Source of the DNA: a virus
Lineage: Duplodnaviria; Heunggongvirae; Uroviricota; Caudoviricetes
DNA: 21,281 bases
Virus record (IMG/VR): IMGVR_UViG_2671180673_000012
Direction: 5' to 3' (one strand)
The position numbers were made by a program, and so were the translations under genes. Numbering within the stretch: the first letter of the stretch is position 1; each line of letters starts with the position of its first letter. Shown one piece after another: positions 4,933 to 21,281 of the stretch. Below the pieces are notes generated by a model. The model saw only the letters and a list, made by a program, of their open reading frames with translations, did no database searches and was not told the DNA's origin.

Positions 4933-5099
4933 GATGGCAGCCTCCGCGATGAATTTGATTAACTCACCACCGAGGTTTTCCACGACCATAAGGGTGGTGA
5001 GACGTACAGGGGTGGAAATACCGGTCATCACGGAACCCGGCCAGCCTTGCGGCTGCCCTGCACGCCCCACCATAATGCGAATGTGGCTGTGCTTAACGC

Positions 5100-5124
5100 A
5101 TAAAAAAACCGCCTGAGCGCGGTT
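5100..5124 (-). terminator. Rho-independent terminator, leftward transcription
   Basis: On the minus strand: 6-bp stem AACCGC/GCGGTT, 6-nt loop, then a run of T; located upstream of the Rha RBS. Confidence 0.5.
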
Positions 5125-5775
5125 ATGCGCCGTGAATGATTTCGGGTTTCCACGCCCGGCACCCGTTTTATGAGGTGCAGGTGCACTATAATTCCACCCG
5201 TTCTGGTTTTCAATAGCTACATTCAACATTTTCTCTACCTTTCATCACCGAAGTGAACTTTGTTGATGCGGTGCCTGGTGCCTCCAGGTGACGTTAACCA
5301 GTTAACAATTAACGTCGGATACAGAGCATTCCCGTTACGCCCGTAAAAGACCGCTTGTTTTAACTGTTCCGCGTGCGCTGAGCCGCATTCACCGCATCAC
5401 AAAATTCACTTTAAAAAGGGCGGCAGAGCAGTCACGGAGTAGAACTGATACCGCCAAAAGTCACCAGAAAATTGATAACAGAGGGCGTTGCAGCGGAGTT
5501 GTCACTTAAGCGTATGGTCAACCTGACAACCCGGTGTCCTCAACGGGGGAAGGAATAACCCCGCCATACTTACCGCCGCGCCATTTCGCGGATTGCCACA
5601 ACCGGAAGCGCACGATCGAATTAAATTTAACGACGACCTATACAGAGAGACTAACTTCTCCGGGCGCTTTCGTGTTATGCCCTGACTTTTCAGGGATATA
5701 TCCTTTTCAGTAAACTGTCAGTGCCGGATTCTTATCCGTGTCCGGCGCACGCACTCTACCTCACCTGTGAATAAA

Positions 5776-12680: not shown

Positions 12681-13021
12681 CGACTTTTACCAGAGAGCAG
12701 TTAATAGCTCACGCAGAGGAGACTATTGAAGCACAGAGACTGTGCATACCGGGCACAATCGACCATGACATCATCCGCACATATAAGATGGATATTGCTG
12801 TTCTGGAAATCGCACTGGTATCGCTGGCAGCAGAGCCAGCCGGTAAATTGCATGAATACAAACCAGTGGGATATCAGCGTCTGGTCGATGAGTTAACCAT
12901 GCTGGTAAAGCAGTTAACCTGGCAACTGAGGAAAGCGAAGCCAGACTGCAAATTACCGGATAAGGCGATGAGTTATCTGGAGCGGAACGGACTGATAAGC
13001 GTGGAGGATATTTTACGATGA
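12677..13021 (+). CDS. Hypothetical protein (114 aa), paralogous N-terminus to the preceding gene
   Basis: Starts [18 protein letters not shown] ... [15 protein letters not shown], sharing the MTT and L(A/V)SL(E/A)AEP motifs with the upstream small ORF. Confidence 0.55.
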
Positions 13022-13101
13022 CCTGGCCTGAAGCATTAACAACGGTAGGAATTGCGATGGCGGTGGCGCTGGTGGTGTATTCGATTTGCCGCTGGGGATA
13101 A
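13018..13101 (+). CDS. Possible 27-aa hydrophobic micro-protein
   Basis: ATGA-coupled [30 protein letters not shown]; no independent RBS; speculative. Confidence 0.3.
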
Positions 13102-13107
13102 AAACGG

Positions 13108-13136
13108 TTTGCGGGAAAAGGAGAGTTAAGTAGAAT
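13108..13136 (+). promoter_or_regulatory. Candidate hok mRNA promoter
   Basis: TTTGCG, 17-nt spacer, TAGAAT; predicted start just upstream of a GCUUGAGGCU-like leader resembling the 5' end of hok-family mRNAs. Confidence 0.35.
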
Positions 13137-13194
13137 TGCAGCGGGTGCTTGAGGCTATCTGTCTCAGGCATGAACACCAAAAGGCAGATAGAGA

Positions 13195-13265
13195 AAAGCC
13201 CCAGTTAACATTACGCGTCCGGCAAGACGCTTAACATTAATCTGAGGCCATATCTATGCTCTACA
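13195..13265 (-). ncRNA. Putative Sok-like antisense RNA region (approximate)
   Basis: Inferred only from hok/sok architecture, where the antisense RNA overlaps the mok-like start region of the leader; boundaries not determinable from sequence. Confidence 0.3.
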
Positions 13266-13312
13266 CACGTAGGTTAGCCTCTTACGTGCCGAAAGGCAAG
13301 GAGAAGCAGGCT

Positions 13313-13468
13313 ATGAAGCAGCAAAAGGCGATGCTAATCGCCCTGATCGTCATCTGTTTAACCGTCATTGTGACGGCACTGGTAACGAGGAAAGACCTCT
13401 GCGAGGTACGAATCCGAACCGGCCAGACGGAGGTCGCTGTCTTCACAGCTTACGAACCTGAGGAGTAA
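13313..13468 (+). CDS. hokD: Hok/Gef-family type I toxin (51 aa)
   Basis: MKQQKAMLIALIVICLTVIVTALVTRKDLCEVRIRTGQTEVAVFTAYEPEE: single transmembrane helix plus conserved RK(D/S)LCE(V/I)R motif; AGGAG RBS 9 nt upstream; the ORF-track entry from 13256 is an in-frame mok-like extension. The hokD/relF assignment is from recalled sequence. Confidence 0.85.
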   Translation: MKQQKAMLIALIVICLTVIVTALVTRKDLCEVRIRTGQTEVAVFTAYEPEE

Positions 13469-13536
13469 GAGACCCGGCGGGGGAGTAATCTCCCGCCACC
13501 TCTGATGTGCCAGGCATCCTCAACGCACCCGCACTT

Positions 13537-13558
13537 AACCCGCTTCGGCGGGTTTTTG
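13537..13558 (+). terminator. Rho-independent terminator (copy 1 of duplicated terminator)
   Basis: ACCCGC-TTCG-GCGGGT hairpin followed by TTTTT. Confidence 0.7.
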
Positions 13559-13569
13559 CATTAGTCTGG

Positions 13570-13598
13570 TTGACAAAAATAGAAAAATGCGAAAATAT
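13570..13598 (+). promoter_or_regulatory. Candidate promoter of the AT-rich two-gene insert
   Basis: Perfect TTGACA -35, 17-nt spacer, weak AAATAT -10, about 35 nt upstream of the 13634 ATG. Confidence 0.35.
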
Positions 13599-13633
13599 GT
13601 GGTTTACGAATTCTAAAAAAAGCGAAACTTGAA

Positions 13634-14284
13634 ATGAATGAAAATCAGTTAGCTCCTTGTTGGGAATTTCAACCTTATCTTGCTGAAAACTATGTTCGCC
13701 ACTTGTTGGCGGAGATCGCTAACGTACTTGAGCAGCTGTACTATCATAAGCACGCATTAGACAGCAACTGGTCTGAAGGTGTAAGGGCTTATGATTGGGT
13801 CAGAAATCATCTTATTCAAAATGAAGATGCAATTCCTGGCCTTGAGATGATTTCCAAGGGGTTGGACTATGTAGTTGCTTTAAATAAAGTTCCGCTACAA
13901 TTTACCAAAGATTGCATTAATAACCCCAAAAAGAAACATCGTCTGCGTCGAAATAAAGTAGAGTATGAGCAGCTCTCATTGTTTGGTGATGTTGAGGCTG
14001 AGCAAGATATTACATGGCGAGTCATAGCTGAGCCTTTTTTATCCGAAGAGGGCGATGGTGAATTAGAGTCCACACTGCCTCGTTGGGAGGTAGCTCTTGT
14101 TGGATTTAATACTTATGGTGCTCAGATTAGTATAGTTTCTCATCAATCTACAGCATCGATGCCGCTTATGCCTCTTGATTATAACACACTCCCTGACGAA
14201 GCGGAGATTAATAAGGTGCCTCTTCGCCGGCGTACGAAGGATAAAGATTTGGATGTGAGCAGTGATGGAACATCAGGTGAATAA
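13634..14284 (+). CDS. Hypothetical protein (216 aa), first gene of the insert; candidate effector/toxin partner
   Basis: Continuous ORF; about 33% GC over the first 60 nt against about 50% in flanking phage genes; no domain recognised by eye; 3' end overlaps the downstream gene by 20 nt. Confidence 0.6.
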   Translation: MNENQLAPCWEFQPYLAENYVRHLLAEIANVLEQLYYHKHALDSNWSEGVRAYDWVRNHLIQNEDAIPGLEMISKGLDYVVALNKVPLQFTKDCINNPKKKHRLRRNKVEYEQLSLFGDVEAEQDITWRVIAEPFLSEEGDGELESTLPRWEVALVGFNTYGAQISIVSHQSTASMPLMPLDYNTLPDEAEINKVPLRRRTKDKDLDVSSDGTSGE

Positions 14285-15368
14285 CTTCACTGAGTATCGG
14301 GGTGATAAGCTCAAACTAGCGAGAATGGCTGTTGGGCTTTCTTGTGAAGAGTTAGCCGAAAAAATTGGCAAGACAAAGCAATTCGTTAGCAAACTGGAGA
14401 AGGGGTGCAGGCCATCGGAGCAATGTCTTGAGTTAATATCTTCAGCGCTTATGATTAAGTCCAGTTTTCTTTTTACTGAACGAAAATACGCTCTGGAAAG
14501 TGATGTCTGCCATTTTCGGAGTAAGAAGTCCAGGACTCAAACGCTGACTAATAGTGTATTGGCCAGGGCTGAGATTCTTAATATTATAATTTCTGCTGTT
14601 GAAGGTGAAATCGAATTTCCTGACGTTAACATACCGGAGCACCCAGGGGCTGAATTACTTACTCCGAATGATATTGAGCGAGTGGCAGAAGATTGTCGCC
14701 GTGCCTGGAATTTAGGTCTTGGCCCTATATCATCAATGGTTAAATTGGCGGAGAGTTTAGGGGTAATCGTTGCGCATGTTACGGGAGTCGATGATCGTGT
14801 TGATGCTTTTACTGTTCACAATAACAGGCCTGTTATCATCAGGAACAATGTTAAAAAAAGCATATGTAGATTTCGCTCTGATTTAGGTCATGAATTAGGG
14901 CATTTAGTAATGCATGAGGGCATAACGACAGGTGATAAACTTACGGAATCACAAGCCGATCACTTTTCGAGCGCCTTATTAGTTCCCAGGTTATCTTTCA
15001 TTAAAGAATTTCCACGAATACGAGGTAAGCAATTCGACTGGAATGCTCTGGTTGAATTTAAACTTAGATGGAAAATCAGCCTTAAAATGTGTATTTATCG
15101 AGCCAGCGCATTAGGCTTATTGACCCAGGAACAGGCAAGAACTGGCTATATGCATCTTAATTCCAGAGGGTATACGAGAGTTGAACCTGGTGATGAACTT
15201 TTGCGCCCTGAAGAACCCGGCATGCTGGCCGAGGCGATTGAAATGCTGGATGATGCAACCTGGCTAAGAATTCTTATGAAAACTGGCTTGAGCCAAGATT
15301 TAATTCGTGAGTTGTTCTCCATCAACAGACCTATTACAAATCCAAGAAATATTTTCCAGATTGTTTGA
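14265..15368 (+). CDS. Fused XRE-family HTH + ImmA/IrrE-family (COG2856, HEXXH) zinc metallopeptidase
   Basis: N-terminal HTH (LSCEELAEKIGKTKQFVSKLEKG); HEXXH motif DLGHELGHLVMHEG in the central region; ATG at 14265 (ORF-track entry starts at GTG 14262). Confidence 0.8.
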   Translation: MEHQVNNFTEYRGDKLKLARMAVGLSCEELAEKIGKTKQFVSKLEKGCRPSEQCLELISSALMIKSSFLFTERKYALESDVCHFRSKKSRTQTLTNSVLARAEILNIIISAVEGEIEFPDVNIPEHPGAELLTPNDIERVAEDCRRAWNLGLGPISSMVKLAESLGVIVAHVTGVDDRVDAFTVHNNRPVIIRNNVKKSICRFRSDLGHELGHLVMHEGITTGDKLTESQADHFSSALLVPRLSFIKEFPRIRGKQFDWNALVEFKLRWKISLKMCIYRASALGLLTQEQARTGYMHLNSRGYTRVEPGDELLRPEEPGMLAEAIEMLDDATWLRILMKTGLSQDLIRELFSINRPITNPRNIFQIV

Positions 15369-15372
15369 GTAT

Positions 15373-15393
15373 ACCCGCTTCGGCGGGTTTTTT
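15373..15393 (+). terminator. Rho-independent terminator (copy 2, same sequence as 13537-13558)
   Basis: ACCCGC-TTCG-GCGGGT hairpin followed by TTTTTT. Confidence 0.7.
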
Positions 15394-17091: not shown

Positions 17092-17466
17092 ATGCTCATA
17101 GATTTGGTTTTACCTTACCCGCCGACGGTGAACACTTACTGGCGACGCCGTGGCAGCACATATTTTATCTCGGAGGAGGGAAAGCGTTATCGCCGGGCTG
17201 TGGCGCTTATTGTTCGCCAGCAGCGGCTGAAATTAAGCCTGTCCGGAAGGCTGGCGATAAAGGTGATTGCAGAGCCACCGGATAAGCGTCGTCGCGACCT
17301 GGACAATATCCTGAAAGCACCGCTGGATGCGCTGACGCATGCGGGAGTGTTAATGGACGATGAGCAGTTTGATGAAATCAATATCGTTCGTGGTCAGCCA
17401 GTATCTGGTGGACGTATGGGGGTGAAGATTTACCCCATAATGCATGAAGAGCAGGTCAAAAAATGA
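17092..17466 (+). CDS. rusA: RusA-family Holliday junction resolvase
   Basis: 124 aa; RusA-like motifs (PPTVNTYWRRRG ... KRRRDLDNILKAPLDALTHAGVLMDDEQ); GAGGTG RBS 5 nt upstream. Confidence 0.85.
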   Translation: MLIDLVLPYPPTVNTYWRRRGSTYFISEEGKRYRRAVALIVRQQRLKLSLSGRLAIKVIAEPPDKRRRDLDNILKAPLDALTHAGVLMDDEQFDEINIVRGQPVSGGRMGVKIYPIMHEEQVKK

Positions 17467-18284
17467 AACTGGAAGATTTACCGAAATACTACTCCCCAAA
17501 ATCCCCTGGCCTGACCGATGCATCGGCCTCAACGTCAAAAGATGCGCTGAGTATCACTGATGTGATGGCCGCGCAGGGCATGACACAGAATCGGGCTGAG
17601 ATGGGGTTTTCTGCGTTCCTGGGGAAAATGGGCATCAGTATGAATGACAGGGCGCGGGCAACAGAATTACTGGCAGATTATGCACTCAGTCGGTGCGATC
17701 GTGTGGCGGCGTTGAGAAAACTTCCGGCAGAAATAAAACCGGTAGTGATGCGCATTATGGCTTCGTATGCGTTTGAAGATTATGCCCGTAGCGCGGCGAG
17801 CAAAAAACAGTGCCCCTGCTGTCACGGAAAAAAATTTATTGAAAGCGAGGTTTTTACAAACAAGATCCAGTATCCGGATGGTAAGCCACCAGTGTGGGCA
17901 AAGTGCACAAAAGGCGTGTATCCGTCTTACTGGGAAGAATGGAAAAAAGTCAGGGAGGTGGTAAAAGTTGCCTGTCCGGAGTGTGGCGGAAAGGGTGAGG
18001 TTTCCACCGCCTGTAAGGATTGCCGTGGGCGTGGTGTCGCCATTCATCGTGAAGAGTCGGTAAAACGTGGTATGCCTGTTATCAGAGANTGCCAGCGTTG
18101 TGGTGGTCGTGGCTGTGAAAGNCTNCCATCAACGGAGGCATTTAATGCCATATGCAAAGTGACGAGTGCTATCACGCTTGATACGTGGAAAAAATCAGTG
18201 AAACGCTTTTACGATACGTTGGTGGTTCGGTTTGACATTGAAGAGGCATGGGCGGAGCGGCAGTTAAAGAGGGTAACGCGATAG
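17463..18284 (+). CDS. Late-gene antitermination protein Q
   Basis: 273 aa starting MKLEDLPKYYSPKSP; repeated CxxCxGxG zinc-finger motifs; ATGA coupling to rusA; immediately upstream of the late promoter and terminator. Confidence 0.85.
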   Translation: MKLEDLPKYYSPKSPGLTDASASTSKDALSITDVMAAQGMTQNRAEMGFSAFLGKMGISMNDRARATELLADYALSRCDRVAALRKLPAEIKPVVMRIMASYAFEDYARSAASKKQCPCCHGKKFIESEVFTNKIQYPDGKPPVWAKCTKGVYPSYWEEWKKVREVVKVACPECGGKGEVSTACKDCRGRGVAIHREESVKRGMPVIRXCQRCGGRGCEXXPSTEAFNAICKVTSAITLDTWKKSVKRFYDTLVVRFDIEEAWAERQLKRVTR

Positions 18285-19957: not shown

Positions 19958-20033
19958 GGCCCTTTAGCTCAGTGGTGAGAGCGAGCGACTCATAATCGCC
20001 AGGTCGCTGGTTCAAATCCAGCAAGGGCCACCA
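19958..20033 (+). tRNA. ileZ: tRNA with CAU anticodon, Ile2 (lysidine)-type by resemblance to ileX/ileY
   Basis: Manual cloverleaf: acceptor GGCCCTT/AAGGGCC, D-arm GCTC..GAGC, anticodon loop CTCATAA, T-loop TTCAAAT, encoded CCA. Confidence 0.85.
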
Positions 20034-20040
20034 TCACATA

Positions 20041-20117
20041 CCGCCATTAGCTCATCAGGAAAGAGCGCCAGCCTTCGAAGCTGGTTGCGCGGAGTTCGGG
20101 TCCCCGAAGGCGGTCCA
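20041..20117 (+). tRNA. argN: tRNA-Arg (anticodon UCG) with atypical T-loop and one acceptor-stem mismatch
   Basis: Manual fold: D-arm GCTC..GAGC, anticodon stem CCAGC/GCTGG, loop CTTCGAA, T-loop TTCGGGT, encoded CCA. Confidence 0.7.
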
Positions 20118-20130
20118 TTATCTGTATCCT

Positions 20131-20207
20131 GCGTTGTTAGCTCAGCCGGACAGAGCAATTGCCTTCTAAGCAATCGGTCACTGGTTCGAATCCAGTACAA
20201 CGCGCCA
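20131..20207 (+). tRNA. argO: tRNA-Arg (anticodon UCU)
   Basis: Manual fold: acceptor GCGTTGT/ACAACGC, anticodon stem ATTGC/GCAAT, loop CTTCTAA, T-loop TTCGAAT, encoded CCA. Confidence 0.85.
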
Positions 20208-20246: not shown

Positions 20247-20443
20247 AAATGTCTCACAATTCAGGCGGTTGACTGTTGTCTGGTTTGCGGGGAGTTTGTT
20301 AAAAGAAACTGGCATGGTGAATCCCCCTGTGCGGAGGGGCAATCAGCGAGTAGGTATATGGGATAATCGCGGATTCAGGTGCTGGTACTGAATTCACCGG
20401 GAGGCACCCGGCACCATGCAATGGCACATAGCGCCACTCTCCA

Positions 20444-20465
20444 GCCCCTCTCCGGAGGGGCTTTT
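20444..20465 (+). terminator. Hairpin terminator-like element
   Basis: GCCCCTC-TCCG-GAGGGGC followed by TTTT. Confidence 0.4.
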
Positions 20466-20656
20466 CTGTGCCGGATACATCACAGTTTCTGGAACCTTAG
20501 GTACTACAGTATCAGTCAGGGTGCTATATTTTCAGATGTGATGAAAGCCTGTCAGCAGGCAGGGCGTATCGGAAATGACCCAGTAGAGAAAACGTTGACT
20601 CAGATACCGGTGCTGAGTTACCGGGAAACCGGCATCACATGACCGCTATCCTTCCA

Positions 20657-20683: not shown

Positions 20684-20772
20684 ACTGCAGAAAACAGGTT
20701 CCCCGTTAAATGCTATGTTGAACCGCCCCGGGAATCCTGGAGACTAAACTTCCTGAGAAAGAGGTAAACAGG

Positions 20773-21099
20773 ATGACTAAAAATACTCGTTTTTCCCCCG
20801 AAGTCCGTCAACGGGCAGTCCGTATGGTTCTGGAAAGTCAGAGCGAATATGACTCACAATGGGCGACAATTTGTTCCATTGCTCCAAAGATTGGCTGTAC
20901 GCCGGAGACTCTGCGTGTCTGGGTTCGCCAGCATGAGCGGGATACCGGGGGCGGTGATGGAGGGCTCACCACCGCTGAACGTCAGCGTCTGAAAGAGCTG
21001 GAACGTGAAAATCGTGAACTGCGCCGCAGTAACGATATCCTTCGCCAGGCTTCCGCTTATTTTGCGAAGGCGGAGTTCGACCGCCTCTGGAAAAAATGA
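20773..21099 (+). CDS. IS629-like transposase OrfA (HTH, leucine-zipper region)
   Basis: 108 aa: [19 protein letters not shown] ... [31 protein letters not shown], an IS3-family OrfA pattern. Confidence 0.85.
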
Positions 21100-21281
21100 T
21101 GCCACTGCTGGATAAGCTGCGTGAGCAGTACGGGGTCGGACCGCTATGCAGCGAACTGCATATTGCCCCGTCAACGTATTACCACTGTCAGCAACAGCGA
21201 CATCATCCGGATAAACGCAGTGCCCGTGCGCAGCGCGATGACTGGCTGAAGAAAGAGATACAGCGCGTATACGATGAAAAT
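21096..21281 (+). CDS. IS629-like transposase OrfB, N-terminal fragment (partial, runs off window)
   Basis: -1 frame relative to OrfA, starting in the AAAAAATGATG overlap; reads [30 protein letters not shown]...; no stop before the window end. Confidence 0.8.

Follow-up and report, generated by a model that had tools for sequence, protein, structure and literature searches.

The window analysed here is a stretch of 21,281 nucleotides from a Caudoviricetes virus (IMG/VR record IMGVR_UViG_2671180673_000012), and its positions 13108-13560 hold a hok/mok/sok locus, i.e., a type I toxin-antitoxin module. The gene order of the window starts with the integrase, excisionase and exonuclease genes, dicB, Rha, the repressor gene, ydaS/ydaT and the replication genes. 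It continues with a run of small open reading frames (ORFs), hok, two further genes, DUF968, RusA, Q, a methyltransferase gene and tRNAs. The hok slot is located between the replication genes and DUF968-RusA-Q, after a run of small phage ORFs, in agreement with the nin-like placement proposed in an earlier note on this DNA. We consider it highly probable that the locus is an intact hokD/hokW-type module of the nin-like region, and that its carrier is a lambdoid E. coli prophage integrated next to ompW. The same note had described the locus as complete, and all the parts that define such a module at the sequence level are present and intact. The module is already known: it is a common allele, its toxin is annotated by PGAP as HokD, and it is closely allelic to hokW-sokW, a system already studied by experiment.

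The toxin gene hok (13313-13468, plus strand) codes for a protein of 51 amino acids (aa), which matches the Pfam Hok/Gef family PF01848 with an E-value of 1.2e-23 and a score of 82.9 bits (cut-off 22) over the full 42-position profile. The earlier assignment of this ORF to the Hok/Gef toxins is thereby confirmed. The protein is 100% identical, residue by residue, to HokD (RelF) of E. coli K-12, bears the PGAP name HokD (WP_000813254.1) and shares 42% identity with Hok of an R1-type IncFII plasmid. K-12 HokD/RelF is reported to be toxic when overexpressed. The hok Shine-Dalgarno (SD) site AAGGAG (13298-13303) is located 9 nt before the ATG at 13313. An in-frame start at 13256 had been noticed in the position of mok. 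In the ORF list it opens a 70 aa Mok-like reading frame (13256-13468, plus strand) which shares both the frame and the stop codon of hok; mokW of phage 933W is annotated in the same way. The mok SD site GAGG (13244-13247) precedes this ATG by 8 nt and has the same motif as the mok SD of R1.

The region upstream of hok matches the Rfam family RF01794 ("sok") at 13143-13318 on the plus strand. The match covers all model positions (1-157 of 157) and scores 117.1 bits (gathering score 59, E-value 1.8e-26), which is far beyond chance. The model is sense-oriented and runs from the 5' end of the hok mRNA to the hok AUG, while Sok corresponds to the reverse complement of its middle part. Both elements which had suggested a hok-like leader are in place: GCTTGAGGCT (13147-13156) just after the predicted 5' end G13143, and TAGCCTCTTAC (13275-13285) before the hok SD. 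Aligned to the hok/sok leader of plasmid R1, the leader shows about 47% identity, with the same set of elements in the same order.

A putative hok promoter can be read from the sequence at 13109-13136 on the plus strand, with the -35 box TTGCGG (13109-13114), a 16 nt spacer and the -10 box TAGAAT (13131-13136). The position of this -10 box relative to the conserved GGxGCUUGAGG 5' end is that of the R1 hok -10 box TATGAT, which was verified by mutagenesis (PMC9841398). The hok -10 stretch GAGTTAAGTAGAATTGC does not vary among four phage contexts, including those in which upstream homology is lost. The predicted full-length hok mRNA of about 415 nt (13143-13557) takes its 5' end from the start of the Rfam model and its 3' end from the intrinsic terminator, a hairpin with a T run (13537-13557, plus strand) which was found by a terminator scan and has the same hairpin in K-12 hokD. 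Between the hok stop codon and this terminator lies a G+C-rich hairpin GGCGGGGGAG-UAAU-CUCCCGCC (13476-13497, plus strand), which appears in all folds and probably corresponds to the protective hairpin of R1. Hence the structured hairpins expected downstream of the ORF, ahead of the terminator, are found as described. The one hit of a sigma-70 consensus scan, TTAACA, 18 nt, TATGCT at 13231-13260 on the plus strand, was set aside as being at chance level (one found, 0.7 expected).

The minimum free energy (MFE) fold of the full-length hok RNA has an energy of -167.2 kcal/mol, and its 5' end is paired to its 3' end. The tac element GGGUGCUUGAGG (13143-13154) pairs in this fold with fbi, CCUCAACGCACCC (13518-13530): the first 11 nt (13143-13153) are paired to 13519-13530 with C13524 bulged, and G13154-C13518 is a possible twelfth pair. 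The tac/fbi duplex has an energy of -22.6 kcal/mol, equalled by only 6 of 2000 shuffled tac sequences against the same 3' untranslated region (UTR). A tac/fbi lock is part of the R1 model (PMC9841398). In the MFE fold the ucb element AAGCCCC (13196-13202), the anti-SD of mok, also holds the mok SD region, through pairing of GCC (13198-13200) with GGC (13246-13248). With tac held by fbi and the mok SD region held by ucb, the modelled full-length fold represents the closed form, which cannot be translated. Mapping of the Rfam consensus structure onto the window gives, as a model, the open form: tac is paired with ucb, followed by a middle hairpin, and the mok SD region is paired to dcb (GAGGC 13244-13248 with GCCUC 13277-13281).

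The dcb region is the UAGCCUCUUAC element, i.e., the TAGCCTCTTAC stretch at 13275-13285, which by the published R1 nomenclature is the dcb/Sok-promoter region (PMC9841398). An alternative assignment of UAGCCUCUUAC to ucb, with GUAAGAG at the stop codon as its pairing partner, is ruled out by this nomenclature. In the MFE folds of both the 3'-shortened RNA and the leader alone, tac is paired with the sequence directly downstream in a 5' hairpin (13145-13171). As a metastable 5' hairpin was described for R1 (PMC9841398), the modelled hairpin is a candidate for this structure.

The predicted Sok antisense RNA is encoded on the minus strand at 13192-13264 and would be about 71-73 nt long, with a 5' tail that covers the mok start, then a long hairpin and the CUUUUCUCU end. 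Its predicted start (about 13264) and end (about 13192-13194) coincide with those of the annotated sokW of phage 933W (L002, 2594-2664) after transfer of the coordinates, and folding of the minus strand gives a single long hairpin followed by the U-rich tail CUUUUCUCU. The predicted Sok promoter (13271-13299, minus strand) includes the -35 box TTGCCT (13299-13294), a 17 nt spacer and the -10 box TAACCT (13276-13271), which is also the layout of R1 (TTGCGC, 17 nt, TATCCT). The 13269-13312 segment, which covers the Sok promoter (-10, spacer and -35) together with the hok SD, is identical in 933W. In Sakai prophage 5 (Sp5), mutation of this -10 box, TAGGTTA (13270-13276 in the window), to CCGGCTC (primer YO-421) silenced sokW and unmasked the toxicity of HokW, and sokW RNA was detected by Northern blot (PMC8621323). 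For the window copy the promoter boxes, the hairpin and the U tail are all present, and transcription of Sok is predicted from these sequence features. Six of the 26 differences from the hokW-sokW of 933W cluster in the Sok 5' tail and mok start (13249-13251, 13255, 13261-13262); such 5'-tail substitutions could keep co-resident Sok RNAs from cross-reacting.

We examined the conservation of these elements in related loci. A scan of one genome per species gave 53 of them, and 38 non-redundant full-length ones were aligned with MAFFT; they come from Escherichia, Shigella, Kluyvera, Citrobacter, Pseudocitrobacter, Pantoea and Photorhabdus, plus 933W and the R1-type plasmid. The mok SD column is invariant, the tac/ucb pairs are invariant, and the five mok-SD/dcb pairs are invariant except for a few gaps in the fifth. 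In the hairpin complementary to Sok, 5 of the 10 pairs have changes on both sides. For the leader structure as a whole, 74.8% of cells are paired, compared to 37-44% in slid controls, and in 15 pairs both partners have changed. The tac/fbi pairing, taken on the alignment, has 89% of cells paired against 33-55% when the partner is slid, with U:A replaced by C:G at pair 4 in 12 sequences. Pairs 7-12 are partly out of register in the MAFFT alignment since the Photorhabdus loci lack the bulged C, so the duplex search performed separately for each locus is the better evidence there. In nearly all tac-bearing loci this search placed the best tac complement 45-56 nt past the stop codon, the exceptions being L018 (+65) and L050 (+27), in which the ORF is frameshifted. 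Pairing at the same distance was found in Escherichia, Kluyvera, Photorhabdus, Pantoea and others, with compensatory changes such as GGGUG/CACCC to GGGCG/CGCCC and GAGG/CCUC to GAGA/UCUC. The G+C-rich 3'-UTR hairpin is conserved in the aligned loci as well.

Some of the related loci are decayed. In K-12 and in a Kluyvera sp. locus (L030), relE-like sequence stands in place of the leader, as does unrelated sequence in Photorhabdus khanii (L048); the Hok ORF is frameshifted in Shigella flexneri (L050), and in Kluyvera ascorbata (L033) the mok ATG has changed to ATA and is lost.

One more feature of the alignment concerns the toxin coding sequence. TACGAA at 13451-13456, which encodes Tyr47-Glu48 of Hok, is the same in all 38 diverse loci down to the nucleotide, even at synonymous positions. 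It fits UACG, the TadA A-to-I editing motif reported for hok genes; Tyr-to-Cys recoding is reported for hokB and, as stated in the introduction of a recent preprint, for hokC, hokD and hokE (bioRxiv 10.1101/2025.08.07.668861).

Copies of a 501 bp query that are 100% identical to it occur in many E. coli genomes, ABU 83972 and E. coli 042 among them. Out of 5426 complete E. coli genomes, 4938 have a match and 3825 (about 70%) match with at least 80% query coverage. The query also matches 79 phage records, among them 933W, in which mokW, hokW and sokW are all annotated. A catalogue from 2025-26 found Hok in almost 80% of Enterobacteriaceae genomes, with a four-fold enrichment in prophages (bioRxiv 10.1101/2025.08.07.668861).

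By homology with R1, the module would operate as follows. From G13143, a weak constitutive promoter would drive synthesis of a hok mRNA that is stable and about 415 nt long. In the full-length RNA the 5' tac would be locked to the 3' fbi and ucb would hold the mok ribosome-binding site, permitting neither translation nor Sok binding. Slow 3' trimming would remove fbi, so that tac could pair with ucb and the mok start region would be displayed in a hairpin. The short-lived Sok, transcribed from 13264 leftward, would then bind the trimmed hok RNA and lead to its destruction. Once Sok is gone, the trimmed RNA would be translated, with mok translation driving that of the overlapping hok, and Hok would insert into the inner membrane, killing or arresting the cell.

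As for the biological role, the most likely one, by analogy with hokW-sokW in Sp5, is to help with lysis and phage release at prophage induction. It is followed, in order of decreasing likelihood, by prophage stabilisation, exclusion of other phages and, as the least likely option, a silent relic. hokW-sokW was shown to function as a type I pair that depends in part on RNase III and Hfq (Takada et al., 2021; PMC8621323); in this pair, HokW is toxic and is neutralised by Sok (PMC8621323). In Sp5, sokW RNA vanishes on RecA-dependent induction, HokW appears about 1 h before endolysin, and deletion of hokW-sokW halves phage release (PMC8621323).

Several results weigh against the picture of an intact module with a role in lysis. 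A simple sigma-70 consensus scan of 12950-13700 flagged neither the hok promoter, whose -35 box matches the consensus in 3 of 6 positions, nor the Sok promoter. Both promoters were assigned by homology rather than by score; the minus-strand search for a Sok promoter succeeded as far as homology with R1 and sokW goes (boxes at 13271-13299) and failed by consensus. Folding of the 3'-shortened mRNA did not reproduce the tac/ucb switch, the MFE structure taking the 5' tac hairpin instead, and the Rfam-type open structure of the leader has an energy of -29.5 kcal/mol versus -60.3 kcal/mol for the leader MFE. Since thermodynamic folding failed to give the published open form, this form rests on the covariance-model match and on conservation. 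A YUNR U-turn motif was sought in the predicted Sok-target loop and not found in the window allele; 15 of the 38 aligned loci also lack it, so YUNR is not a defining feature. The location of hokW elsewhere in the Sp5 genome means that the role described for Sp5 may not transfer to the window copy. Intact chromosomal hokA, hokB and hokC gave no post-segregational killing in earlier tests cited in the preprint (bioRxiv 10.1101/2025.08.07.668861), so a plasmid-like stabilising role is not assured either. Finally, expression of the hok and Sok RNAs, 3' processing and toxicity are attributed to the window copy by analogy with its relatives.

Alternatively, the module, although complete in sequence, may be unexpressed or unable to kill, as has been argued for chromosomal hok loci. 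The failure of hokA, hokB and hokC, which according to the preprint extends to rifampicin activation tests (bioRxiv 10.1101/2025.08.07.668861), favours such a silent relic, and so do the promoters that are weak by consensus and the target loop without YUNR. The prophage itself may be defective, as its homology to other genomes ends at 20720 and is followed by an IS3-type element. We nevertheless regard a silent relic as very improbable. Mutational inactivation of the leader, which the earlier note took as the mark of a decayed relic of the K-12 kind, is not seen; every regulatory element is intact and visibly constrained, with compensatory changes. The decayed copies look different, having lost the leader (K-12, L030, L048), the ORF (L050) or the mok ATG (L033), while in hokW-sokW, at 94% identity to the window locus, both RNAs are expressed and silencing of sokW leads to killing (PMC8621323).

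If the module is active, its main role could also be to stabilise the prophage: upon loss or excision of the latter, the unstable Sok would be lost while the stable hok mRNA is kept, resulting in cell death. This is the established role of the R1 module, and the delayed-activation architecture of the mRNA (the tac/fbi lock and the protective 3' hairpin) is fully conserved in the window. However, deletion of hokW-sokW left the growth of the Sp5 lysogen unchanged and the reported role was in lysis, not in stability (PMC8621323), and chromosomal hok loci failed the post-segregational killing test according to the same preprint (bioRxiv 10.1101/2025.08.07.668861); stabilisation as the main role appears rather unlikely. 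Anti-phage defence, in which host transcription shut-off by a lytic phage would deplete Sok and free Hok (abortive infection or exclusion), seems to us less probable still. R1 hok/sok on a high-copy plasmid is cited as having lowered T4 plating (PMC8621323), and the module adjoins the RosmerTA defence pair described below, while relBE occupies the same slot in K-12, suggesting a cargo or defence islet. On the other hand, Hok is absent from PADLOC, though PADLOC holds no Hok model and its silence on Hok is uninformative; the catalogue found no enrichment of hok near defence systems (bioRxiv 10.1101/2025.08.07.668861), and the sole direct test of a prophage copy gave a pro-lysis role (PMC8621323).

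Returning to the role in lysis, we speculate that Hok in prophage copies may be triggered by read-through transcription, a suggestion that is tentative and more probably wrong than right. In the nin-region copies examined (window, Tritos, 689R5 and K-12 Qin), hok is co-directional with the early rightward operon and is located between the replication genes and Q; in 933W it has the orientation of the pL operon and lies just beyond the attachment site. Early transcripts made upon induction would cross the module in the sense direction and collide with or occlude the convergent sok promoter, and hok would be delivered on RNAs whose ends escape the tac/fbi lock. If true, this would explain the RecA-dependent loss of sokW RNA left unexplained by Takada et al. 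(PMC8621323) and provide a simple mechanism for switching on a type I toxin by prophage induction. As a corollary, the hok terminator, present twice around the RosmerTA insertion, would act as a nin-type barrier before Q. The terminator scan found no strong intrinsic terminator on the plus strand between the immunity region and hok (from 7000 to the hok promoter), while the two copies of the hok terminator (13537 and 15373) come before the gene for the antiterminator Q (about 17463-18284). The annotation of the window includes no N-like gene.

Two small neighbours of the module deserve mention. A 27 aa hydrophobic ORF (13018-13101, plus strand), unannotated in the window, lies just upstream of the module, and its ATG overlaps the stop codon of the preceding gene. 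Homology between the window and 933W starts exactly at this ATG and the frame is kept in 933W, so the ORF seems to travel with the hok module; a variant of it is annotated in phage 689R5. Downstream, a perfect TTGACA (13570-13575) may be the -35 box of a RosmerTA promoter.

RosmerTA is a defence pair of two overlapping genes (13634-15368, plus strand) directly after the hok terminator. RmrT (13634-14284) is a 216 aa protein recognised by PADLOC with an E-value of 5e-25. RmrA (14262-15368) has 368 aa, a PADLOC E-value of 6e-105 and the Pfam domains HTH_3 and Peptidase_M78/IrrE. An exact 20 nt direct repeat of the hok terminator, ACCCGCTTCGGCGGGTTTTT, is found at 13538-13557 and 15373-15392; these repeats bound a 1835 bp segment carrying RosmerTA. 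When this segment is removed, the window aligns with K-12 Qin (hokD to rem) at 94.9% identity straight across the junction, which suggests either insertion of the RosmerTA cassette at the terminator or a deletion between the repeats in K-12. The junction of hok and Rosmer occurs in 232 of 5426 complete E. coli genomes, and a gene pair of similar size, one member of the HTH/ImmA type, follows hok in phage Tritos, ABU 83972 and Ec-U3. The lambdoid slot between the replication genes and Q apparently gathers toxin-antitoxin or defence cargo, such as relBE in K-12 and RosmerTA in the window.

Further Rfam matches lie farther from the module. On the minus strand, in the leftward operon near dicB and Rha, they are C4 antisense RNA (4990-5077), isrK (5102-5178) and DicF (5418-5469). 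Near the window end, on the plus strand, there are three tRNAs (19958-20204), the sRNA STnc100 (20283-20473) and an ALIL pseudoknot (21054-21170), a frameshift signal of the IS3 family. The end of homology to the closest genomes at 20720 suggests an insertion sequence (IS) near the window end.

The module has the same elements in the same order as hok/mok/sok (parB) of plasmid R1: promoter, tac, ucb, Sok hairpin, mok SD and in-frame mok, continuing with dcb/Sok promoter, hok SD, hok, protective hairpin, fbi and terminator. Protein identity between the two is only 42% and leader identity about 47%. The Sok hairpin of the window is longer by a 16 nt insertion relative to the Rfam consensus, common to hokD/hokW-type and Kluyvera loci. 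Unlike in R1, the tac-fbi duplex of the window has a bulged C, and the carrier is a prophage rather than a plasmid.

Much closer is hokW-mokW-sokW of the Stx2 phage 933W/Sakai prophage 5, which is 94% identical at the nucleotide level along 441 bp (leader 93.5%, ORF 93.6%). It shares with the window the in-frame mok, the tac and fbi sequences, the Sok promoter stretch and the conserved 27 aa ORF upstream. The HokW protein is 90% identical to the window Hok, and the C-termini differ (TAYEPEE in the window versus VDYESEK in HokW). In contrast to the window, 933W lacks the ACCCGCTTCGGCGGG terminator after fbi, and its module lies outside the nin region, at the far right end of the prophage and on the same strand as the leftward (pL) operon.

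hokD (relF) of the cryptic prophage Qin of K-12 has the same 51 aa protein, 3' UTR, fbi and terminator, and it occupies the same slot upstream of DUF968 (ydfU) and Q (ydfT). However, everything upstream of the hok SD in K-12, i.e., tac, ucb, the mok start and the Sok gene with its promoter, has been lost to relBE: homology with the window starts only at 13299-13300, at the hok SD, and relE is located directly upstream. The absence of relBE ahead of the window locus, pointed out in the earlier note as a difference from K-12, is thus borne out. K-12 also lacks the 1835 bp RosmerTA insertion after the hokD terminator. Little is added by finding a textbook module in a common allele which automated pipelines have already named; still, the window copy illustrates cleanly what a full-length ancestor of the truncated K-12 hokD looks like.

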